Assembly: GCA_016713445.1 (NCBI GenBank)
Contig: JADJPB010000001.1
Coordinates: 726,572 to 790,571 of the forward strand
Length of the DNA: 64,000 nt
Source: Bacteroidota bacterium
GTDB taxonomy: Bacteria > Bacteroidota > Bacteroidia > AKYH767-A > OLB10
Direction: 5' to 3'
Part shown: positions 2,419-54,735 of the stretch, one piece after another
Layout of the letters: the number at the start of each line of letters is the position of its first letter
Position numbering within the stretch: the stretch's first letter is position 1
Notes under the pieces: generated by a model
What the model saw: only the letters and a program-made list of their open reading frames with translations
Told to the model about the DNA's origin: nothing
The model's database searches: none
Position numbers and translations under genes: made by a program

Positions 2419-4570
2419 ATGCAACCAAAAGCTATTACCGTTTCATCTCCTCTATCCAATGGTAGGGAGATAATTATTGAAACCGGCCGACTTGCTAAGC
2501 AAGCGCACGGTTCTGTTGTTGTCCGCCAGGGCAATTGTATGTTACTCGCCACTGTCGTATCGTCTCAAGATGCGAAAGAAGGTGTTGATTTCCTTCCTTT
2601 AACTGTTGATTATCAAGAGAAATTTGCTGCCGCTGGTCGTATCCCCGGATCTTTCTTCCGACGTGAAGCTCGTCCAACAGAGCAGGAAATTTTAATTTGC
2701 CGTTTGATCGATCGCGCCATGCGCCCTATTTTCCCTTCCGATTATCACGCCGATATCCAAATCGCAGTGACTTTAATTTCTGCTGATATGGAAGTGTCTC
2801 CTGATAGCCTCGCTTGTCTAGCCGCTTCTGCTGCCGTAAGTATTTCCGATATTCCTTTTAACGGTCCAGTTTCTGAAGTTCGCGTTTGTAGAATAAACGG
2901 AACTTTTATGGTAAACCCTACCATCACTGAAGCAAAAGAAGCCGATATCGACCTGATTGTCGCCGGTACTGCGAAGGATATTTTAATGGTAGAAGGAGAA
3001 TGTAAAGAGGTGGACGAGAAGGACATGGCAGAAGCAATTAAAGTAGCACAAGAAGCTATTTTAATTCAATGCAAAGCCCAAGAAGAATTAGTGGCAAAGG
3101 TGGGTGTTACTAAACGTACCTATAGCCATGAAACACACGATGAAGAATTAAGAGAGCGTGTTACGAAGGCTTGCTACGATGGTGTTTATGCCGCAGCTCG
3201 TCAATGTAATCCCAATAAGAATGAGCGTAAAGTAGCTTTCAAAAAAGTGTTGGAAGATTTCTTGGCAACCATGAGTGAAGAAGAACGTGCTACTCAGGAG
3301 AAGTTGGTGAAGACTTATTATCACGATGTTGAGTTTGATGCCATGCGCGATATGATTCTAAAAGAGCGTATCCGTTTAGATGGTCGTGGTTTGACCGATA
3401 TCCGTCCAATCTGGAGTGAAATCGGTTACCTCCCTTCTGCTCACGGATCAGCGGTATTTACCCGTGGTGAGACGCAATCTTTAACTACGGTTACATTAGG
3501 AACGAAGTTGGATGAGCAATTGGTGGATCAAGCGATGGAAAAAGGATCAAATAATTTTATGTTACATTATAATTTTCCTGGTTTCAGCACCGGCGAAGTG
3601 AAGCCTAACCGTGGAACAAGTCGTCGTGAAGTGGGTCATGGTAACCTCGCTCACCGTTCTATTCGTCAAGTATTACCTGCTGAAGATTTGAATCCTTATA
3701 CCATCCGTATCGTTTCTGATATCTTAGAATCGAATGGTTCTTCGTCAATGGCTACAGTTTGTGCTGCGAGTTTATCGTTGATGGATGCAGGTATCAAAAT
3801 CACTGCTCCTATCTCAGGTATTGCTATGGGATTAATCACCGATGGTAAAGGAAATTTTGCTGTATTGAGTGATATCCTGGGCGATGAAGATCATTTGGGC
3901 GATATGGATTTCAAAGTTACAGGTACAGCTAAAGGAATTTGTGCGTGCCAGATGGATTTGAAGGTGGATGGACTTCCTTATGAAATCTTGATGGAAGCTT
4001 TGAATCAAGCACGCGCTGGACGTTTACATATCCTAGGAGAAATGAACAAGACGATCGCTGCGCCTGCAGAAGATTATAAGCCACATGCTCCAAGAATTGT
4101 GAAGTTACGTGTAGCGAAAGAATACATCGGTGCGATTATCGGACCAGGTGGAAAAATCATTCAGGAAATCCAACGTGTTACAGGCACTACCATCACTATT
4201 GAAGAGATCAATAACGAAGGTCATGTTGAGATTGCTTCTCCAGATAAAGCGTGTATCGATGCGGCTTTGGCTCGTATTCGTGGTATCGTTACAGAACCTG
4301 AAGTGGGTGAAGTGTACGATGGAAAAGTAAAGACCATTACAACTTTCGGGGCGTTCGTTGAGTTTTATGCCTGGTAAAGATGGACTTCTTCATATCTCTG
4401 AAATTTCTAACGAGCGCCTTGCTTCTATGGATGGCGTATTAAAAGAAGGGGATCCCATCCAAGTGAAATTAATTGAGATAGATAAGAAAACTGGTAAGTA
4501 TCGCTTGTCACGTAAGGTTTTGTTGACTAATCGTCCGGAAAGAACAACTCCAGCCGAAAACCAAGCTTAG
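2419..4570 (+). CDS. pnp: polyribonucleotide nucleotidyltransferase (PNPase), frameshifted near the S1 domain (extra T in the T run at 4364-4367)
   Basis: Two RNase PH domains, a KH domain and an S1 domain (…[20 protein letters not shown] | [18 protein letters not shown]…). The 652-aa and 70-aa ORFs join when one T is removed. Confidence 0.9.
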
Positions 4571-5759: not shown

Positions 5760-6060
5760 CCGGGGGGGTACGGATATCGGCATCATTATCGGATACTCGA
5801 TTCTGAACGAATATGAGATTGGAAATCGAGCATCAGATCAGTATCGAGATATCGAGCATCAATTATCGGAAATCGAGCATCGAACATCGGAAATCGAATA
5901 TCAAGTATCGGAAATCGAGCATCCAGAATCCAGAATCGAGTATCGAGTATCGAGCATCAATTATCGGAAATCGAGCATCGAACATCGGAAATCGAATATC
6001 AAGTATCGGAAATCGAGCATCCAGAATCCAGAATCGAGTATCGGATATCGAACGGTAAAC
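5760..6060. repeat. microsatellite-like tandem array of 6-8-bp ATCGAG/ATCGGA units, including two long duplicated blocks, upstream of a four-helix-bundle gene
   Basis: atcgagcatcgaacatcggaaatcgaatatcaagtatcggaaatcgagcatccagaatccagaatcgagtatcg occurs twice; the array has no stops in two frames, which creates the artefactual long ORFs 5692.. and 5813..6058. Confidence 0.8.
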
Positions 6061-6120
6061 ACTTATAGTCGTTTAAATACGAGTAATAAGAAATTATCAT
6101 GGAGCTTTGCAAAAAAAAAT

Positions 6121-6498
6121 ATGGTTAATTTTAAAAAATTAGTAATTTGGAATGAAAGTCTATTGCTTACTAAAGAAATTTATAAATTAAGTGCTGATTT
6201 TCCACGTGACGAAAAATATGGATTGACTAGTCAAATAAGAAGGGCGGTAGTTTCAATCCCATCAAACATTTCTGAGGGAAGCTCCAGAAAGTCGAGGAAA
6301 GAATTTTCACACTTTCTTGATATTGCTTTAGGTTCAAGTTATGAATTAAAAACACAGCTAACTATTGCTCAAGAATTAGGAATATTGAAAATTTCTGAAA
6401 CTAGCGTAATCTTAGATAAATTGAACAAAATCCAAGCTTCAATCAGCTCATACAATAAAAAATTGCTTTTAGACTCAGGAAAAGGCAAACTGAATTGA
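6121..6498 (+). CDS. four-helix-bundle protein (TIGR02436 / 23S rRNA IVS protein family; fold relative of DGR Avd)
   Basis: MVNFKKLVIWNESLLLTKEIYKLSADFPRDEKYGLTSQIRRAVVSIPSNISEGSSRKSRKEFSHFLDIALGSSYELKTQLTIAQELGIL…, about 125 aa, the typical family size. The reading frame upstream of this ATG is a translation of the repeats. Confidence 0.8.
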   Translation: MVNFKKLVIWNESLLLTKEIYKLSADFPRDEKYGLTSQIRRAVVSIPSNISEGSSRKSRKEFSHFLDIALGSSYELKTQLTIAQELGILKISETSVILDKLNKIQASISSYNKKLLLDSGKGKLN

Positions 6499-6564
6499 GC
6501 GGACACACTAAATTGTATAATTAAGCAAGGTCAAACCTACTTCCATCAAGTATAGGAGGTCAAA

Positions 6565-6795
6565 TATCGAGCATCGAGTATCGGAAATCAAGTATCGAGC
6601 ATCGAGTGTCGGAAATCAAGTATCGGATATCTAGTATCGGAAATCAAGAATCGAGCATCGAGTATCGGAAATCAAGTATCGAGCATCGAGTGTCGGAAAT
6701 CAAGTATCGGATATCTAGTATCGGAAATCAAGAATCGAGCATCGAGTATCGGAAATCAAGGATACAACATCAAGTATCGGAAATCAAGAATCCAT
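6565..6795. repeat. second tandem array of ATCGAG/ATCGGAAATCAAG units (a roughly 84-bp higher-order unit, two copies plus partials) downstream of the four-helix-bundle gene
   Basis: gtatcgagcatcgagtgtcggaaatcaagtatcggatatctagtatcggaaatcaagaatcgagcatcgagtatcggaaatcaa is repeated; same motif family as 5760-6060. Confidence 0.8.
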
Positions 6796-6864: not shown

Positions 6865-7528
6865 ATGTCTGTACTCATTGCCCCTTCAGTCTTATCAGCC
6901 GATTTCGGAAATCTCGAGAGAGATATTAAAATGATTAATGACAGTAAAGCCGATTGGTTTCATGTGGATGTGATGGACGGAGTTTTTGTTCCCAATATTT
7001 CTTTCGGATTCCCTGTATTGAAAGCGGTAAAGAAGCATGCACGCAAGCCGCTGGATGTGCATTTGATGATTGTTAATCCCGATCAGTATTTAGCTGCTTT
7101 TGCAGATGCTGGTGCATCCATTATTTCGGTGCATTACGAAGCTTGCACGCATTTACACCGCACGATTCAAAAAATGCGTCAGTTAGGTATCTTAGCGGGT
7201 GTGGCGATTAATCCATACTCCTGTGAATGTATTGTCAGAAGTTATTTCAGCGATTGACGTGGTGGTACTGATGTCGGTGAACCCAGGCTTCGGCGGACAA
7301 AGTTTTATTCGCAATACCTTCAGTAAAACTGAAGAATTGAAAAATCTCATCATTCAGAAAAATTCAGGAGCCAAAATTGAAATTGATGGCGGCGTAGATC
7401 TAAAAAATGCATCTGAATTAGTACGTTGTGGTGCCGATATTTTGGTAGCCGGAAACACAGTGTTTAGTTCTACGTCTCCTTCTAATACGATTGCGATTTT
7501 GAAGGAAGCGTCGACACAGACGGCATAA
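6865..7528 (+). CDS. rpe: ribulose-phosphate 3-epimerase, split by a 1-bp deletion (CC for CCC at 7213-7214)
   Basis: MSVLIAPSVLSADFGNLERD…VHLMIVNPDQY…GVAINP | (H)TPVNVLSEVISAIDVVVLMSVNPGFGGQSF… is a full-length Rpe when one C is restored. Confidence 0.85.
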
Positions 7529-9795: not shown

Positions 9796-9990
9796 GTTAA
9801 CAAATTTAACCTTAATCAAGGCTAAAGTTAACAAAGTTAACCTTCGCTAGGGCTTCAGTTAACAAAGTTAACCTTCGCTAGGGCTTCAGTTAACAAAGTT
9901 AACCTTCGCTAGGCTTCAGTTAACAAAGTTAACCTTCGCTAGGGCTTCAGTTAACAAAGTTAACCTTCGCTAGGGCTTCAGTTAACAAAG
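9796..9990. repeat. about 6.3 tandem copies of a 31-bp unit GTTAACAAAGTTAACCTTCGCTAGGGCTTCA (two HpaI-type palindromes per unit)
   Basis: One degenerate first copy then five near-perfect copies; one copy lacks a G (ggg to gg). The last partial copy supplies the final codons (…F-V-N-stop) of the cyclase gene on the minus strand. Confidence 0.9.
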
Positions 9991-11939
9991 TACATATCAA
10001 TCTCACCTTTGTTTTTAGCATCTACTTTGCCTCGATAACTGCACTCAAATTTATTTTTCACCAAGGCATAAGTACTACCACTGATATTTACCTTTCCAGC
10101 TTCCCCACTCGACTCCATCCGTGATGCAACGTTTACGGTATCGCCCCAGATATCGTAAGCGAATTTTGGGATCCTACAATTCCTGCTACAACAGGTCCAG
10201 AATGAATACCAATTCGGATTTCAAAAGGAGTCTTTCCTTCTTTTTCACTCTTTTGCTTATGCGCCGACATATATTGTTGAATTTCCAATCCTGCCTTAAC
10301 CACATCTAAAGGATGCGAAGTATTGGAAATAGGAAGACCGCCAACACACATGTAGCTATCGCCCATCGTTTTTATCTTCTCGATTTTATGGCGAGTAATT
10401 ATATCATCAAACGCCTTGAAACAAGTATCAATTTCCGCAACCAACACTTCCGGACTCAATTTTTCACTAATTTGTGTGAAGTCTTTGAAGTCGGTGAACA
10501 TGACCGTCACACTTTCAAATTGTTTGGCCTCAGCACTTCCTTTTGACTTCAACTCTTCAGCTACTTCAAGTGGTAAAATATTTAAGAGTAAGTCATCACT
10601 TCTCTTTTTACCAGATCTGATTTTGTTACGTTGGTTTAAGAATATGATGGCAAATAATGCCACCACCGCAAATACAATCATTAAACCATCTCGAATTAAT
10701 TTCTGCTTTTGTATTTCTTTTTTTGCTAAGGCATCTTTTTTATCTTGTTCGGCTCTGGTTAAACTTTCCTTCTTATCAAAATCATATTGCATCTGCGCTT
10801 GCACCAATTTTCGGGTGTTTTCTTCACTAAATAAACTGTCGCGGGTGGAAATAAATAATTTGTAATGCGAAAAAGCATTTGCAAAGTCGCCTTTAGCACT
10901 ATCCAGCTTGACCAAAACTTCATAGTTGGATTTCAAATTATCTAAGCTTCCAATTTCTTTTGAAAGGTTTAGTGATTTAGTAAGGTAGTTTTCCGATTCC
11001 TTTAAATCTTTCTTTTTAAAATAGGCGGTACCAATATTTAAAAATGTTCCCGACATTCCTTCTTTATCTTCAATCTTAGTTTGATAGTTGACAGCTTCAA
11101 AAAGGTTTTTTAGGGCTTCATCATATTTTCCCAAGTTAATATAGATCTCTCCAATATTATTATAGGAGATGGATATTCCATCATCATTCTTCATTTCTTT
11201 CTGGAGAGCCAATGCATCTACATAGTACTGAAGTGCCTTTTCGTATTTGCCTTCATCTGCATAAACATTTCCTAAATTATTATAGGAGGAAGCAATGCCT
11301 TGTTTTTCACTAATCTCTTCAAATATTTTAAGTGAGGTTAGATAGTTTTTCTCAGCAGAAATCACATCGCCTTGCTCCACATTAATAATTCCAATATTTC
11401 CGTACAAGACAGCAATGCCATATTTATTTCCTATCTCCTCCATAGTTTTTAGAGAAGCTAAATAGTTTTCCAATGCTTTCGAATAATTTCCTTGATTCCA
11501 ATAAATGATTCCAATACTATTGTAACAGGCAGCAATGCTCGTTTTACTCCCGAGTTCTTTGTTTTGCTGCAATGATAAATTTTGGTGAGCAATTGCTGAT
11601 GGATAATCTCCTTTGTCCATAGCGATATTTCCAAAGCAATAATTTGCATTAGCAATACCTTGAGGATAATTTATTTTTCTGAAAGAGCCTTTAGTTGATG
11701 TGCGTAATCGATTGCTTTTTGAGGATCATTTCTAAGTAAGCTTTTGAAATGCTAAATAGAATTTTGGCCTTTGTTGAATCGAAAAGTGGAGTAATATCTT
11801 CGGAAGTTTTACTTTTTCGCTCATCGTGAGCTATGAGCTGTCTATTTAGTGAATCAAGCAGTCCTTTTTCTTGAGAAAATACGATGAGCGGAAAAAGAAT
11901 AAAAGCCAAGAATACGTAGATTTTTTTCATAGTGAACAA
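9978..11939 (-). CDS. signal peptide + TPR repeats + TM helix + class III adenylate/guanylate cyclase, with at least 4 frameshifts
   Basis: MFTMKKIYVFLAFILFPLIVFS signal peptide; many TPR units (…YNNLGNVYADEGKYEKALQYY…); a TM helix (LMIVFAVVALFAIIFL); a cyclase catalytic domain (FTDFKDFTQ…TMGDSYMCVGG…IRIGIHSGPVVAGIVG | IPKFAYDIWGDTVNVASRMESSGEAGKVNISGSTYALV…). Fragments are the 82-aa ORF, two short frame switches near 11640-11700, the 495-aa ORF, and a C-terminal extension beyond 10133 after a shift at about 10173. Confidence 0.8.
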
Positions 11940-43831: not shown

Positions 43832-44627
43832 GTGTTCATGGCCAAACTTATGAAGGCTGAAATTTGTTTACTCCATATAGTGGAAACCACAACATTCCCT
43901 AGTTCTATTTCGCATGCTTTTTCAGGATTTGAAAAAAAAGTGGAAGAAGCATCTAATGAAAATTTAAAGGCATTGGCGGATAAATTACATACTAACCATG
44001 GAATTCCGGTGAGTATAATTACCGAAGTTGGAAAAATTTACAAACGCATCGTACATGTAGCAAAACAAGCGCATATTGATATTATCATTATGGGTACATG
44101 GTGCTGGTGGACATAGTTACATCATCGGAAGTAACACAACTCGTGTGGTGCAAGAAGCTCCATGTCCAGTGATCTCAGTGCAAACACACGCTACTAAAGT
44201 TGGATTTACTAAAATTGCTGTTCCAATTGATGATTCTGTTGAATCGCGTCAAAAAGTAAATTTTGCTTTAGAGATTGCCAGAAAATACAATTCCAACGTG
44301 GTTGTAATTGGTTTAATGAAAAATGGCAATGAAGATTACGAACGTAAGTTTAAAATCAAGATTGAGCAAGTAGAAAAGTTTTTACTGGATCATGGTATTC
44401 ATACAGAAGTTATCTACAAGCAGGGAGAAGATCTTTCAAAAGGAACTTTACATTCTGCAGAAGAAATTGATGCAGATTTGGTGATGATTATGACTGAACA
44501 AGAGCCTAGTATTACTGGCTTGTTGATGGGTTCATACGCGACCAAAGTAATCAATGGTTCCAAGATACCTGTGATGACCATTCGTCCAGCTGAGATCGAT
44601 CCTGAGCGCTTAACTGTTACCTTTTAA
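43832..44627 (+). CDS. universal stress protein with tandem UspA domains, frameshifted at about 44090
   Basis: …AHIDIIIMGT | HGAGGHSYIIGSNTTRVVQEAPCPVISV… spans the 94-aa and 183-aa ORFs. Confidence 0.7.
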
Positions 44628-46718: not shown

Positions 46719-47528
46719 TTGGAAACAAGAATTATGGAGCTATTTCATATCGATTTTTTAAGCGTAAGACTACTGGATATATTGGATATCTTGCTGGTCG
46801 GTTTTCTATTGTACAAGATTTATCAATTGTTGAAAGGTGGTGCTGCGATGAGTATTTTTATTGGTATCGTAGCAATTTATGTATTATGGTGGTTGTTTGT
46901 GAAAATTTTGGATATGCAATTGTTGGGTGCTTTACTAGGACAATTTATGAGCGTTGGAGTATTAGCCCTTATTATCGTTTTTCAGCAGGAGGTTCGTCGA
47001 TTTTTGTTGATCGTCGGAAGCAATCGTTTTACGGGAAAAGGCAGTATCTCCAAAAAGATATTACCTTGGCATTGGAAAGCACCTTCTGCAATTCCCATCA
47101 ACATAACACCCATCGTGAAGGCCTGTATTTCAATGTCAAAAACTAAAACAGGTGCTATCATTATCATTGGACGTTCGAGCGACTTAAAGTTTTACGAAAG
47201 TACTGGTGATTTAATGGATGCTGATGTGTCGAAACGTTTACTGGAGTCTATTTTTTTCAAAGGATCACCGATGCATGACGGCGCAGTCATTATCGAAAAC
47301 AATAAAGTAAAAGCAGCTAGATGTGTCCTACCTGTAACTGAGAACTCGGATCTCCCAGCACATTATGGAATGCGTCATCGTGCTGCGTTAGGAATTACTG
47401 AACAAAGTGATGCGATTTCGATTATTGTTTCTGAAGAAACTGGATTTATTTCTTTAGCGATTGATGGGAAGATGCATTATAATATTTCAAGCGATGAGCT
47501 CGAAAAACTTTTAGGGAAGATGATTTAG
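46719..47528 (+). CDS. cdaA: diadenylate cyclase (c-di-AMP synthase) CdaA
   Basis: 3 N-terminal TM helices plus a DAC domain with DGA (…MHDGAVII…) and RHRAA (…GMRHRAALG…) motifs. Confidence 0.85.
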   Translation: METRIMELFHIDFLSVRLLDILDILLVGFLLYKIYQLLKGGAAMSIFIGIVAIYVLWWLFVKILDMQLLGALLGQFMSVGVLALIIVFQQEVRRFLLIVGSNRFTGKGSISKKILPWHWKAPSAIPINITPIVKACISMSKTKTGAIIIIGRSSDLKFYESTGDLMDADVSKRLLESIFFKGSPMHDGAVIIENNKVKAARCVLPVTENSDLPAHYGMRHRAALGITEQSDAISIIVSEETGFISLAIDGKMHYNISSDELEKLLGKMI

Positions 47529-47559
47529 TTACGTATTGTAATTGTAGTTGCGTAATGTT

Positions 47560-47642
47560 TATTCCTCGCTTTTTTAGGCTTCTAGCTTCTGGCTGCTAGT
47601 TTTTTTTAGCTGCTAGCTTCTAGCTATCTTCTATATTTTTGT
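47560..47642. repeat. GCTAGC/GCTGCTAG-rich simple repeat at the 3' flank of a four-helix-bundle gene
   Basis: ggcttctagcttctggctgctagttttttttagctgctagcttctagct; reverse-complementary to the repeat at 48163-48188. Confidence 0.7.
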
Positions 47643-47960
47643 AGTTCTTAGTTTTATCAAATAGCTATTAATCATTCTTTGAATTTGGTCTAGTTTTACT
47701 AGCAATTTTTCATGTTCAAACTCACTAATGTAATTTAAACGAAGGAATAAGTGAATTTGAGTTTCTAGTTCGAATGAAGATCCCATTGAAATTTCAACAA
47801 ATCGTGCTTTATCTTTCTCAGATTGTCTCGAACAGCCTTCAGCAATGTTGGATGGTATGGAAACAGAACATCTTCTCATTTGATTAGTCAATCCATAGAT
47901 TTCTGAAATTGGCAATTTTGTTGTTATTTGATAAGTTGATTCTACCAATTCAATTCCCAA
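47631..47960 (-). CDS. four-helix-bundle protein (TIGR02436 / 23S rRNA IVS / Avd-like), second copy
   Basis: MGIELVESTYQITTKLPISEIYGLTNQMRRCSVSIPSNIAEGCSRQSEKDKARFVEISMGSSFELETQIHLFLRLNYISEFEHEKLLVKLDQIQRMINSYL; the family motif SIPSNIAEGxxR is present. Confidence 0.8.
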   Translation of the reverse strand: MGIELVESTYQITTKLPISEIYGLTNQMRRCSVSIPSNIAEGCSRQSEKDKARFVEISMGSSFELETQIHLFLRLNYISEFEHEKLLVKLDQIQRMINSYLIKLRTTKI

Positions 47961-48162
47961 ATTTTTAATTTCTTAAAATTTATCATATTATTACTTTTTT
48001 GCAAAGTTGATATAAGAAAAATAGATAGTCGTATAATAAATACTTATACGTTTTGCAAATAACTAATCGTCCTTAAGCTTTAACAATCAACCAGAAAAAC
48101 TTTTAAAAATTTGTAGTAAAAAACAAATTAAACCATAAGAAAACACTTCTCAATAAAATTTT

Positions 48163-48188
48163 CGATCAGCTAGCAGCTAGCAGCCATA
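48163..48188. repeat. GCTAGCAGC repeat at the 5' flank of the four-helix-bundle gene, inverted relative to 47560-47642
   Basis: gatcagctagcagctagcagcc. Confidence 0.7.
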
Positions 48189-48244
48189 AGCTAAACCAAA
48201 TTTCGGAGCCAAATCTCTACTATGAAACAAACTCTATCTACTTA

Positions 48245-50157
48245 CTCACACTATTCGCGAGTTCAAAATACTTCGCTGCCATCGCTTCATTGCCTTTATT
48301 GCGCCAGGTTACTCTAAAAGTAATAAGCTTGCGTAAGATTTGGATTAATTTGTACCGCTCGCTCGAGGTTAGTGATGGCCATATCATAGCCCGCCTACTC
48401 CGTAACACGATCCGATATTCATATAAGCATCAGCATAATCAGGTTTGTATTTTACGGCTTGTTGATATCGTTTTAAGGCTTCGTTGTAGTTTTGCATATC
48501 GAAATATACTGAACCAGAATTGTTGAGCACAACAGGATCATAAGGATTTAATTTTATGGCTTCGTCGTAGTATTTCAATGCTTCTGGATAATTTTTAACT
48601 CGGTAACTGGCTATTCCAAGTTGGGTCCATGCATCGGTGAAATATGGGTATAATTCAGTCGATTGTTGTAGATGGGAAACACCATCGTTGAATGCGGCAT
48701 CACGTTGATTTTCGGGAAGTGTTTCGAGGTAGTCGGGTTTTACTTTGTAAAGACCTACGTAATAATGTACGCGTGCCGAATTCGGCGCTGAGCTGAGACC
48801 GCTATTGTACACAACGTCTCGTTGCTCTTCCAAACTGGATTTCGTGTTATGGTGAGCCCTGAGAAGAGCAGTACAACAATTCCTGTGAATGACGCCGCCG
48901 GCACAGCAATGGTTTTTGATTCTACTAAATTTTTATCGAGAAATTTTAATATTAATGATGCGAAAAATAAAATAATTCCGAAAGAAGGCACATACATCAA
49001 ACGCTCTCCGTAATGTGTACCAATTCGCATGAAGATGTTAGAGGAAACAGAAACGGTTATGAAAAAGAAGAACAAGGCAAAACTAATCAGAGTCCCTTTC
49101 TTAAAATCCTTGATTGCCCATCCGAGGAGAGTTAGCAAAAGAACAGCCGATACCATAAATTTCCAATCACTTATTTTTGCTGAGAAACTTCAGGAAACGA
49201 TAAGTCAAAACTCAGGTTGTTGGGAACAACTAATTTGTAAAGATACAATCCCAACATAGCCACGGCACCGGTTATTTGAGTCAAGGTGTCTTTAGCGTAC
49301 ATCAATGCATTGTCAGCAACGGAGGGTGGTGCCGCCGTGAACATCTCGGAACTATTTAAGCCGTTGTGACGGATGAAGAGGAGAAGGATGGTGGGGATGA
49401 GCATCCATTGCGTGCCAACGAGCGAGGAACGGATTGTAGAAGTGTCTGAAGAATGAAAACGAAAATAAACCAATAACGGAAATATAGGTAAAAAGGTTAT
49501 GCTACTTTCTTTGCATAGGTAAGCGGCGAAGAATAAAATCATCGCTAGAATAATATTCATCGCTTTCCCTTGATCCTTGTAGGTTAAATATTGATTGAGG
49601 CTCAGTAGACAAAAGAGGAACGCTAATATTTCATCTAAGCTTTTAATGTTGGCCACAACTTCGGTGTGGATGGGATGGACGGCGAATATTAATGCGGTGA
49701 GTAACGCTAACTTTTGTTGATTCGGAAACCATTTGCTTAATAATCGGAAGATGAAAAAGCAAGTGAATGCAAAAAGCAAGACGTTGAGAAGATGTCCGGG
49801 TGTGGCGTTGTTTGGAAACCAATCCCAGAAAATAGCAAAGATTGCCTTAGGCAAAGGACGATACAACTCATCGGCAAGGAGAATGTAACCATAACGGTAA
49901 CTTGTGGAAAAGATTTCACCTAAGGCTGCTATTCCCTTTTGCGTACTGGTGTTTTCTAGGATTGCAGCATAATCATCTAATACAAATCCGAAGTCCAATG
50001 TGTTCGCATAAACTAAAAAACCAAGGATTGCCGGCAACCATGCCCACCATTTTGGATAATCTACTTTAGGGACAGATGATAGTACACCACTCTCTTTGGC
50101 TTTCGCCGTAGCAGCAAATTTTTCTTTTTTATTTAGTTTCTTCGCCGACATGGTCAC
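48245..50157 (-). CDS. TMTC-like protein: polytopic N-terminal membrane domain (DUF1736/PMT-like) plus C-terminal TPR repeats; split into at least 4 fragments by frameshifts
   Basis: 328-aa membrane ORF (…WWAWLPAILGFLVYANTLDFGFVLDDYAAILENTSTQKGIAALGEIFSTSYRYGY…); a further membrane segment in 48755-49156; TPR units in 48384-48833 continuing in shifted frames to about 48245 (…AMAAKYFELANSVSK*). Confidence 0.6.
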
Positions 50158-52950: not shown

Positions 52951-53023
52951 GATTCCGTAGCTCAGTTGGTAGAGCAATACACTTTTAATGTATGGGCCCT
53001 GGGTTCGAGTCCCAGCGGAATCA
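52951..53023 (+). tRNA. tRNA-Lys (TTT)
   Basis: GATTCCGTAGCTCAGTTGGTAGAGCAATACACTTTTAATGTATGGGCCCTGGGTTCGAGTCCCAGCGGAATCA: 7-bp acceptor stem, anticodon loop CTTTTAA, TTCGAGT T-loop. Confidence 0.9.
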
Positions 53024-53072: not shown

Positions 53073-54735
53073 AATCTGCCCAAGCTTGCTTGGAAGCAGA
53101 TTATGAAAATCAAAAAATGCGGAGCATTCGCTTTGCTTTTTCCACTCGGAGCTAAATGGGTCCGCCAAACAGCTTTAGCTGGTTGGCACTCCCAGTTTTT
53201 CTGCCCAAGCTTGCTTGGAAGCAGATGACAAAAAACAAAATTCGCAGCTTTAGCTGCGTTGCTTTCTATTTTCAGAATGGAGACTAATGGGTCCGTCTCG
53301 TCGTGTTGCTTGCAACATGACGAGACATTCCCAGTTTTCTCTGCCCAAGCTTGCTTGGAAGCAGATGACAAAAAACAAAATTCGCAGCTTTAGCTGCGTT
53401 GCTTTCTATTTTCAGAATGGAGACTAATGGGTCCGTCTCGTCGTGTTGCTTGCAACATGACGAGACATTCCCAGTTTTTTTCTGCCCAAGCTTGCTTGGA
53501 AGCAGATGACAAAAAACAAAATTCGCAGCTTTAGCTGCGTTGCTTTCTATTTTCAGAATGGAGACTAATGGGTCCAACGAATAAAATCATATTGCTTGCA
53601 ATGTGATTTTATTCGTCAATCCCAGCGAGATCATTAATAATTGCAAAGCGAAGGCCCTCTCCAAGGTCGCGTTTTTGTTTTAGGGCATCTGCCCAAGCTT
53701 GCTTTCCCCACTCTCCCCTCGACAGGCTCATGGAGCATATTCTTTTAATTTAAATAATAACACTCTGTTCACTCATTCTCATTCTCATTCTCTCTCCTAT
53801 ATGGGTCCGTCTCGTCGTGTTGCTTGCAACATGACGAGACATTCCCAGTTTTTTTCTGCCCAAGCTTGCTTGGAAGCAGATGACAAAAAACAAAATTCGC
53901 AGCTTTAGCTGCGTTGCTTTCTATTTTCAGAATGGAGACTAATGGGTCCAACCGATAAAATCATATTGCTTGCAATGTGATTTTATTCGTCAATCCCAGC
54001 GAGATCACTAATAATTGCAAAGCGAATGCCCTCTCCAAGGTCGCGTTTTTGTTTTAAGGCATTTGCGCAAGCTTGCTTGCCCTACTCTCCCCTCGACAGG
54101 CTCAGGGAGCATACTCTTTTAATTTAAATAATAACACTCTGTTCACTCATTCTCATTCTCATTCTCTCTCTCCTATATGGGTCCGTCTCGTCGTGTAGCT
54201 TGCAACATGACGAGACATTCCCAGTTTTTTTCTGCCCAAGCTTGCTTGGAAGCAGATGACAAAAAACAAAATTCGCAGCTTTAGCTGCGTTGCTTTCTAT
54301 TTTCAGAATGGAGACTAATGGGTCCAACCGATAAAATCGTATTGCTTGCAATGTGATTTTATTCGTCAATCCAAGCGAGATCACTAATAATTGCAAAGCG
54401 AATGCTCTCTCTCAAGGTCGCGTTTTTGTTTTAGGATTGCATTTGCGCAAGCTTGCTTTCCCTACTCTCCCTCGACAGGCTCTGGGAGCATTCTCTTTTA
54501 ATTTAAATAATAACACTCTGTTCACTCATTCTCATTCTCTCTCTCCTTCTCATTCTCATTCTCTCTCTCCTATATGGGTCCGTCTCGGCGTGTTGCTGAC
54601 AACATGCAAAGATATTCCCGGATTTTTTCTGCCCAAGCTTGCTTCTCCTACTCTCCCCTCTACAGGCTCAGGGAGCATTCTCTTTTAATTTAAATAATAA
54701 CACTCTGTTCACTCATTCTCATTCTCCCTCTCCTT
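53073..54735. repeat. composite non-coding tandem array: three units of about 130-140 bp, then three units of about 375 bp, then a degenerate tail; built from hairpin modules P, Q, H1, H2 and S
   Basis: P = CTGCCCAAGCTTGCTTGGAAGCAG (imperfect palindrome), 10 occurrences; Q = 70-bp block with a GCAGCTttaGCTGC hairpin; H1 = GTCTCGTCGTGTTGCTTGCAACATGACGAGAC + ATTCCCAG + T7; H2 = CGAATAAAATCATATTGCTTGCAATGTGATTTTATTCG followed by an approximately 80%-identical copy of the tRNA-Lys 3' end and its 3' flank; S = 120-bp block with a variable (CATTCT)n(CT)n microsatellite. Confidence 0.9.

Follow-up and report, generated by a model that had tools for sequence, protein, structure and literature searches.

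A PF05635 gene between inverted heptamer arrays in a Bacteroidota genome: a probable intervening-sequence-type cassette outside rRNA genes

The PF05635 protein family owes its name to a handful of insertions in rRNA genes, and its homologues number at least 1,862 proteins at E <= 1e-10. The insertions themselves, known as intervening sequences (IVSs), lie inside a 23S (or 16S) rRNA gene, where they replace the tip of a helix (helix 9, 25 or 45); IVSs with an open reading frame (ORF) for an S23p/PF05635 protein are found at helix 45 in Coxiella burnetii and Leptospira. In C. burnetii the IVS has a 28-bp terminal stem, two or three strain-variable tandem GACAGAT heptamers precede the S23p start, RNase III from either Coxiella or E. 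coli cuts the element in vitro, and the 5' processing site lies at the first heptamer repeat (PMC4990558). Here we describe a PF05635 gene that sits between inverted GCTAGC-rich repeats in a 64,000-nt stretch of a Bacteroidota bacterium genome (contig JADJPB010000001.1; hereafter the window, to which all position numbers refer). It is the second family copy in the window and lies on the minus strand, which we call gene sense, between the convergent ends of a PMT_2/TPR gene and cdaA, outside any rRNA gene. Heptamer repeats have also been described without reference to IVSs. Short tandemly repeated repetitive (STRR) hairpins of 7-bp repeats are common in the operon spacers of Nostoc, with a function that is not known (PMC2670836), whilst TAACTGA heptamers, studied by MacGregor in 2015 in Beggiatoaceae, Cyanobacteria and some Bacteroidetes, often stand just upstream of start codons, in arrays that vary between close relatives and are absent from the relatives' orthologous spacers (PMC4679880).

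The ~640-bp block resembles ORF-bearing 23S IVSs in several respects. The same protein family occupies the loop of an element of ~430-640 nt; complementary terminal sequences can form a stem around the ORF; this stem is made of tandem heptamers, in numbers that differ between strains or relatives (GACAGAT in Coxiella, PMC4990558; GACAGAG/GACGGAT in the Azospirillum element described below); and the distribution is sporadic, suggesting lateral transfer. Unlike those IVSs, it lies between protein-coding genes, with no rRNA helix tip replaced, and it carries an additional conserved leader, ~176 nt long, which separates the 5' arm from the ATG. We consider that 47560-48200 is very probably an IVS-type cassette, that is, a laterally exchanged PF05635 gene and leader framed by inverted heptamer arrays, an architectural equivalent of the ORF-bearing 23S IVSs. 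That the arms pair in a read-through transcript, making this an IVS-type cassette at work outside rRNA, is the overall explanation that we favour, with rather less assurance.

Both arms are built from a 7-nt unit (Table 1). On the left flank, GGCTTCTAGCTTCTGGCTGCTAG at 47577-47599 is followed by a run of eight T and then by AGCTGCTAGCTTCTAGCTATCTTC at 47608-47632; the right flank reads CAGCTAGCAGCTAGCAGCCATAAGC at 48163-48190. Between the flanks, inverted pairs of 22 nt at 86% identity (47604-47625 with 48168-48189), 17 nt at 94% (47583-47599 with 48177-48193) and 12 nt at 100% were found, and GCTAGCAGC, with at most one mismatch allowed, occurs 11 times in the 64 kb, with 7 of these occurrences in the two flank patches, against 4.9 +/- 2.1 in whole-window shuffles. 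The inverted repeats that an original prediction, made from the letters of the window, had placed around this gene are thereby confirmed. TRF reports period 7 at 47578-47625 and 48167-48184, and in gene sense the units are (AGCTKCT)n in the 5' arm and (AGMAGCT)n in the 3' arm. The GCTAGC palindrome is incidental to this unit. The prediction had held that the motifs of both window cassettes are built from self-complementary hexamers; the units prove to be 7 nt long, most of those elsewhere in the family are non-palindromic (AGACACA, ATAGGAA, GTTGATG), and the common property is the 7-nt period. It was right to give each cassette a repeat signature of its own, and this holds family-wide.

Throughout the 64-kb window, runs of three or more heptamer units are found solely beside the two PF05635 genes. 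The 5' arm starts 45 nt past the stop codon (48238-48240) of the upstream, co-directional PMT_2/TPR gene, and the 3' arm ends 37 nt from the stop (47526-47528) of the convergent cdaA. Minimum-energy and centroid folds of 47540-48210 pair both flanks on either strand, as the predicted stem leads one to expect, and the arm-arm RNA duplex has an energy of -46.5 kcal/mol, against -18.8 +/- 4.5 when the 5' arm is shuffled (the observed value was reached by 0 of 300 shuffles). We rejected chance or simple low complexity as an account of the arms on the basis of the motif counts, the duplex energy and the family-wide flank scores given below.

Table 1. Features of the two PF05635 loci in the 64,000-nt window.
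Feature	Position	Strand	Description
5' arm, second copy	48163..48193	-	TTTAGCTTATGGCTGCTAGCTGCTAGCTG in gene sense, ~four AGCTKCT-type units
Conserved non-coding leader	47987..48162	-	~176 nt between 5' arm and ATG
PF05635/TIGR02436 four-helix-bundle gene, second copy	47631..47986	-	23S rRNA IVS protein family (S23p); ancestrally 120 aa, frameshifted here
3' arm, second copy	47565..47632	-	Gene sense GAAGATAGCTAGAAGCTAGCAGCT-A8-CTAGCAGCCAGAAGCTAGAAGCC, two blocks of AGMAGCT-type heptamers, complementary to 5' arm
High-identity tract, window vs L006	~47480..48340		94-100% identical; cassette plus ~50-100 nt of each flanking gene; surroundings 70-82%
Copy 1 (first PF05635 member)	5787..6792	+	Layout [X][X']-ORF-[X']
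Copy 1 short 5'-type patch	5787-5805	+	TATCGGATACTCGATTCTG
Copy 1 upstream array	5821-6050	+	230 bp of ATCGAGY/ATCGGAA heptamers
Copy 1 ORF	6121-6498	+	125 aa, 45% identical to second copy
Copy 1 downstream array	6544-6792	+	250 bp of ATCGAGY/ATCGGAA units, orientation as upstream array

Exact-sequence look-ups of the window's second-copy and copy-1 IVP proteins, cdaA and recQ proteins gave no match, and relatives were reached via the window's sigma factor and via homologue identifiers. Two syntenic loci, L006 (a contig of a metagenome-assembled genome, GCA_016717725.1) and L009 (79% amino-acid identity), have the gene between PMT_2/TPR and the convergent cdaA, and both retain the inverted arms and the ~176-nt leader with it. 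The empty site to which the original prediction pointed was found by a metagenome scan with cdaA in seven relatives (L090, L093, L095-L099): these share the recQ-cdaA/PMT-TPR synteny, have neither the gene nor the heptamer arrays, and leave a gap of just 5-30 nt between the two stop codons. On this sequence comparison, the ~640-bp block is inserted sequence, arms included. Moreover, an 81%-identical gene (amino acids) stands at another locus in L007/L008, between lepA and a CotH gene, with expanded AGCTTCT/AGAAGCT arms and the same leader as the window cassette; since arms and leader are kept at a different locus, the arms travel with the gene. The 5' arm is conserved in L006, L009, L007 and L008, and the 3' arm differs from that of L006 by exactly one 7-nt unit.

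The closest 'empty' relative has something else in the cassette's place. At 3890-3990 of L091, whose cdaA is 86% identical, a 250-nt spacer contains GCAAAGA-type repeats, then a GCGGCCGATAGCTATCGGCC hairpin and then the complement CCTTTGCG; it may be a cassette remnant or a different small hairpin element.

The pattern of identity amongst the gene-bearing relatives points to recent movement. Between the window and L006 the host genes (SDR, PMT, cdaA, recQ, Usp) are 74-80% identical in nucleotides and the cassette, arm to arm, 97.8% over 634 nt; between L006 and L009 the corresponding values are 75-83% and 80%. In a sliding-window profile the identity plateau falls off over ~100 nt into either flanking gene, and the main differences between the window and L006 cassettes are two exact 7-nt indels, in the ORF and in the 3' arm. 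Because two of three lineages that are about equally distant in their host genes share a near-identical cassette at one and the same site, these alignments suggest a recent transfer by recombination through the flanks, and we read the high-identity tract as one of recent lateral exchange or gene conversion.

The protein belongs firmly to the family. The window ORF matches PF05635 (23S_rRNA_IVP) at E 1.1e-33 and 116 bits, against a cut-off of 33.8, and TIGR02436 ('four helix bundle protein') scores 119.6 bits against a cut-off of 24 on the intact orthologue P0001 (120 aa, 98% identical), whose closest solved structure is XCC0516 (2GSC, E 6.9e-22). The gene span first proposed, 47631-47960, is correct for a residual ORF of 109 aa that begins at a TTG, and falls short of the gene. 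Three-frame translation places the ancestral start at an ATG at 47986 (MINFKKLKIWE..., in another frame), and alignment with orthologues shows that one of two tandem TTGGGAA units is gone at ~47951-47960, with a frameshift after codon 11. M1, F4 and W10 are invariant across the family alignment; the residual ORF is without F4 and W10, and its profile match begins at position 10. The window copy of the protein gene is probably dead or decaying, via a 7-nt slippage deletion, and assembly error is possible too, because other genes in the window are also split. These are rpe (6865-7528), a Usp-domain gene (43832-44627) and the PMT_2/TPR gene (48238-50157), each in two or three ORFs where the intact versions of relatives measure 221, 292 and 638 aa, respectively; in rpe the window is 2 nt short relative to L001, at ~7214. 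Their splits reflect either assembly frameshifts or gene decay. In the relatives L006, L009 and L007 the PF05635 gene has a dN/dS of 0.09-0.12 at dS 0.7-1.0, a ratio that indicates purifying selection on the protein.

The leader is conserved as well, at 97.8% identity to L006 and 76% to L009, where dS is 0.7-1.0. It contains a near-invariant block, TATTTGCAAA(C)G(A)GTATAA..TTATACGACTA, with a possible small hairpin that is seen in both folds, and CTTTGCAAAAAA immediately 5' of the start codon; copy 1 has an identical CTTTGCAAAAAAAAA before its own ATG. We infer that promoter or translation signals of the gene itself probably lie in the leader. A sigma-70 promoter scan gave 3 matches against 5.1 expected, with a consensus that is wrong for Bacteroidota, and no Bacteroidota -33/-7 promoter could be confidently placed in the leader.

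Is this arrangement peculiar to one locus, or does it belong to the family? We surveyed 81 gene copies in 80 GTDB species genomes (one per species), chosen by protein similarity alone in a protein alignment scan; most are from Bacteroidota, with Clostridia, three lineages of the Candidate Phyla Radiation (CPR), Blastocatellia, Planctomycetota, Desulfobacteraceae, Ignavibacteriaceae, Balneolaceae and KSB1 also represented. The 200 nt upstream (5' flank) were aligned by Smith-Waterman with the reverse complement of the 200 nt downstream (3' flank); such local alignment scores took the place of counts of shared 7-mers between flanks, which suffer from low-complexity confounding (cross-locus background 30%). 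A score of at least 30 was reached by 68% of the 81 copies, against 0.5% of displaced controls of the same geometry, which are mostly coding and not intergenic DNA (p 4e-34), and against 20% in direct orientation. Autocorrelation peaks at lags 7, 14 and 21 appear in both flanks and in neither the gene nor the controls, and arrays with a period that is a multiple of 7 are sevenfold denser near the gene (0.82/kb vs 0.11/kb elsewhere). Indeed, TRF detects arrays of period 7 (or 14, or 21) directly up- and downstream of nearly every surveyed gene. The sequence of the unit is specific to the locus, with the 3' unit being the reverse complement of the 5' unit, as in ATAGGAA/TTCCTAT, AGCCTTA/CTTAAGG, AGCTGTC/AGCTGAC, GTTGATG/CCATCAA, AGATTTT/CTAAAAT and AGACACA/GTCTTGT. 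An arm is typically ~32 nt long; the median distance is 34 nt from the end of the 5' arm to the ATG and 14 nt from the stop to the start of the 3' arm.

These cassettes sit in short intergenic gaps and follow the direction of transcription around them. The upstream gene shares their orientation in 94% of cases (p 4e-5) and the downstream gene in 90% (p 0.004), where the remaining neighbouring ORF pairs of these loci give a baseline of 77%. Purines predominate in 39 of 51 5' arms (G 24%, C 12%; p 2e-4), and RNAduplex gives a modest preference for the sense strand (51:30, p 0.01). The 7-nt period was also considered as a device for placing stop codons in all three frames, and rejected: 42% of 5' arms and 29% of 3' arms have such stops, where shuffles give 21% and 11%, and they are a by-product of the period and not a rule; the copy-1 array is itself an open frame.

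There is also a link to true rRNA IVSs. A plasmid tblastn search found the family mostly on cyanobacterial plasmids. On the Azospirillum lipoferum plasmid AZO_p2 (L110), the ORF lies within 23S/LSU (large subunit) rRNA (Rfam RF02541, 2529 bits) between arms of the form TCAGAGGACGGATGACAGAGGACGG... and ...CCGTCCTCTGTCTTCTGTCATCCGTCTTCTGA; the rRNA sequence gives way to TCAGAGGACGGATGACAGAGGACGGAGGACAGA, followed by the ORF and by TCCGTCCTCTGTCTTCTGTCATCCGTCTTCTGA, which is the inverted heptamer-array layout of the window. None of the loci L001-L102, among them the 80 survey loci and the window's syntenic relatives, contains rRNA, and residence in rRNA is therefore the exception for the PF05635 family. 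Rfam at gathering threshold returned only two tRNAs in the 64-kb window, with no rRNA and no family for the cassette. The long-range stem with IVS geometry that had been predicted thus finds agreement in the folds, in the arms kept by L006, L009, L007 and L008 and in the likeness to L110 and Coxiella; what does not carry over is the rRNA setting.

By analogy with these IVSs, read-through transcription from the PMT_2/TPR gene would put both arms on one RNA, where they would pair as an imperfect duplex of ~25-30 bp enclosing the leader and the ORF; as the arms are tandem heptamers, pairing in several registers is possible. RNase III would then cut the stem and free the ORF-bearing RNA from the host transcript, as in the 23S IVS. 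The arms would gain or lose 7-nt units by slippage, so that the stem could persist despite fast turnover, and the cassette, arms included, is exchanged between related genomes, apparently through recombination in the flanking genes. We lean, if only slightly, towards the functional step of PMT_2/TPR read-through, arm pairing in RNA and RNase III cutting, to which homology, the orientation bias and the asymmetry of the arms all point.

Several observations weigh against this explanation. Co-transcription of both arms, their pairing as RNA and RNase III cleavage are, at this locus, what we infer; a leader promoter downstream of the 5' arm may give transcripts that do without that arm; and the downstream neighbour, cdaA, is convergent, unlike the neighbour in 90% of family loci. 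The fold of the whole cassette is not significantly more stable than its shuffles (z -1.6 and -1.4). Across the family, clear arms are wanting by score in about 16-32% of loci, and the coding make-up of the displaced controls must be kept in mind. Nor is the period strictly 7: the GC-rich plasmid 1 of Gemmatirosa kalamazoonensis (L109, 1300-1900) has arms of 8-nt units, GGGCAGGA and CTCCTGCC, and TRF places 16 arrays of period 8 close to genes in the 80 loci. The layout of L109 is [X][X']-ORF-[X'], as in copy 1 of the window, and the Ignavibacteriaceae locus L027 has [X]-ORF-[X][X']; one stem around the ORF does not wholly account for these three, whose layouts allow alternative pairings, in a local hairpin or in an ORF-enclosing stem. 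Lastly, the high-identity island rests on one pair of assemblies, of which L006 is metagenome-assembled.

The strongest competitor, which we nevertheless think improbable, is that the arms act in DNA, as terminal inverted repeats or as cruciform or hairpin ends that drive mobility in the manner of a miniature inverted-repeat transposable element (MITE), an insertion sequence (IS) or a recombination hot spot, with the RNA stem as a by-product. Much of the evidence for movement suits it: the cassette is present in some relatives and cleanly absent from others, it recurs at an unrelated locus in L007/L008, and the island of 97.8% identity lies in a background of ~78%. Mismatches in the arms carry no strand signal, with 85 compatible with G:U against 99 of A:C type (p 0.34), so that pairing at the DNA level fits too, a point for the DNA account and against arm pairing in RNA. 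Then there is L027, where the spacers of a chemotaxis/two-component operon hold inverted-heptamer hairpins without an ORF (1842-2007, 3410-3490, 4033-4101, 6022-6086). Three of these hairpins, in neighbouring spacers, share the AGGCAAT unit of the PF05635 cassette in the same operon and a common loop, AAAGTTTTTGTTTTTAC; their sequences suggest miniature, non-autonomous cassettes, parallel to the ORF-less IVSs of rRNA. MITEs, and the hairpins of repetitive extragenic palindromic (REP) sequences and bacterial interspersed mosaic elements (BIMEs), are indeed comparable as small intergenic insertions bounded by inverted repeats, with ORF-less copies such as those of L027, a place within operons and a possible effect on mRNA processing. 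Unlike them, the cassettes have locus-specific heptamer arrays for arms in place of a conserved terminal inverted repeat, and their orientation is tied to host transcription. The arms are common to a close subfamily (L007 and the window) and different in every other member, which leaves no common site for a transposase; no transposase or recombinase lies beside the cassettes examined in detail; and, given the divergence of the empty sites, no target-site duplication could be defined. We know of no transposase partner for these cassettes. An orientation bias and a purine-rich 5' arm, both tied to the direction of transcription, are unexpected for symmetric DNA ends and hard to square with a purely symmetric DNA element, and the stem of the homologous rRNA IVS acts in RNA (PMC4990558).

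Less probable still is that the encoded four-helix-bundle protein, a homopentameric homologue of Avd, binds to the arrays, serving autoregulation, protection of RNA or propagation of the arrays, with the complementarity of the arms secondary. Avd relatives work with a reverse transcriptase on nucleic acid. The exclusive association of arrays and gene in the window, and their sevenfold enrichment family-wide, would suit such a role; a fixed 7-nt period with free unit sequence suggests a ruler, and the ORF-less hairpins of L027 cluster beside an ORF-bearing one. Yet the units vary freely whilst the surface motif SIPSNIAEG is invariant in the family proteins, which argues against sequence-specific recognition, and simple binding arrays have no need of the inverted orientation, which is nevertheless strongly preferred (68% against 20% in direct orientation). 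The likeness to the Avd protein (bAvd) of diversity-generating retroelements (DGRs) is real at the level of the four-helix-bundle superfamily (a weak PF22296 match at E 3.5e-5 and a match to NF033474), but the NF033474 score is 26 bits against an equivalog cut-off of 80. The Pfam lists of L006, L009 and L001 have no RVT domain within ~6 kb, template and variable repeats (TR/VR) not having been searched for. Membership of a DGR was rejected on the sub-cut-off NF033474 score and on the lack of a listed reverse transcriptase within ~6 kb at the syntenic loci.

Least probable of all is that the two arrays are independent terminators or insulators of cdaA and the PMT_2/TPR gene that owe their complementarity to a palindromic GCTAGC core: a weak terminator-like hairpin with its T8 run does stand on the plus strand just past cdaA (47582-47599, the run extending to 47607), and the palindromic nature of GCTAGC and AGCT partly confounds direct and inverted readings, but the right-hand array has no T-run, gene-less relatives have no arrays after cdaA or PMT/TPR, the arrays accompany the gene at its other locus, and non-palindromic arms elsewhere in the family are complementary all the same.

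The first family copy of the window differs in its arms. Its two long arrays are direct, not inverted, and the short patch at its 5' end is complementary to both. Among L001-L003 these arrays vary in length and sequence and cannot be aligned, despite an identical sigma-factor protein nearby, and the ORF is 95-98% identical between relatives against 85-92% for its flanks. Metagenome contigs frequently stop within the copy 1 arrays. Two further repeats of the window have other characters. A tandem array at 9796-9991, unrelated to the heptamers, has 6.4 copies of the 31-nt unit GTTAACAAAGTTAACCTTCGCTAGGGCTTCA at 93% match, with two GTTAAC palindromes per unit; and a large tandem repeat at 53190-54571, just past a tRNA (52951-53023), has periods of 140 and 374 nt in ~3 copies that are 96-98% identical, and includes a GC-rich hairpin (GGGTCCGTCTCGTCGTGTTGC..GCAACATGACGAGAC) and runs of the hexamer CTCATT.

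Returning to the repeats with which we began, the arrays of the window are like STRRs in being tandem 7-nt units that are intergenic and form hairpins (PMC2670836). The STRR class was defined in heterocystous cyanobacteria (PMC2670836) and the host here is a member of the Bacteroidota with different units; the resemblance is one of kind and not of sequence; and, unlike STRRs, which are described as repeats without an associated gene, the window arrays are tied to a PF05635 gene. PF05635 copies on cyanobacterial plasmids are themselves flanked by STRR-like heptamers in inverted orientation. On plasmid pANA02 of Anabaena sp. 90 (L108, 1120-2000), long GGTGACA/GGGAACA arrays face a (GTCACCT)4 3' arm, in an inserted cassette that separates cas6 from cas4 in a type I-D CRISPR-Cas operon; the arms in Geminocystis are AGGGAAA and TTTCCCT, and N. 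punctiforme has an AGGAGTC array. Two identical genes on plasmids gamma and alpha of Nostoc PCC 7120 (L104, L105) have a (CTTCTGC/CCTCTGC)n 3' arm and no clear 5' arm. In L104 an annotated ISL3 transposase gene ends ~80 nt before the ORF, and the unannotated DNA upstream of the ORF in L105 is near-identical to the 3' end of that gene; the 5' arm was probably disrupted by an IS insertion.

The TAACTGA study, for its part, concerns direct repeats of one heptamer, proposes translational regulation and makes no mention of 23S IVSs or four-helix-bundle genes (PMC4679880); the units of the cassettes, by comparison, are locus-specific and form inverted pairs around one gene family. Earlier reports place the family inside cas loci (PMC3936711; PMC10910872), which may be a simple matter of cassettes inserting into operons, as in the cas6-IVP-cas4 order of Anabaena sp. 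90. A literature search that did not cover subscription journals yielded no report of inverted heptamer arrays around PF05635 genes outside rRNA, no description of the general layout, and, in the papers searched, no connection between STRRs and PF05635; an earlier description elsewhere is possible.

These threads could be joined further. Perhaps PF05635 genes and their inverted heptamer arms make up widespread, operon-embedded and laterally exchanged hairpin cassettes, of which the 23S IVSs are a special case that landed in rRNA; STRRs and the ORF-less hairpins of L027 would then be arms or non-autonomous derivatives, and the element would encode, in the Avd-like pentamer, a factor of its own that works on heptamer-repeat nucleic acid to spread the element, to maintain arm complementarity or to control RNase III processing. 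We put this forward as a tentative picture, and doubt that all of it will hold.

To conclude, this locus exposes a family-wide rule that joins rRNA IVSs, a very large protein family and the unexplained heptamer repeats of the STRR type, and that makes the questions around them testable. The rule comprises a 7-nt period, complementary arms, free unit sequence and sense orientation within transcription units. Should the rRNA IVS prove to be an instance of a general cassette, the origin and movement of IVSs are open to comparative genomics, as filled sites, empty sites and exchange tracts are all visible, one such tract in this window. The rule predicts that RNase III or another double-strand RNase cuts polycistronic mRNAs at the cassettes, which, if true, would make them operon-splitting modules. 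It would also provide a candidate origin for the STRRs of cyanobacteria and for the heptamer arrays of Beggiatoa and Bacteroidetes, and 'CRISPR-associated' reports of the family may, on the same condition, reflect cassettes flanked by short repeats within cas operons.

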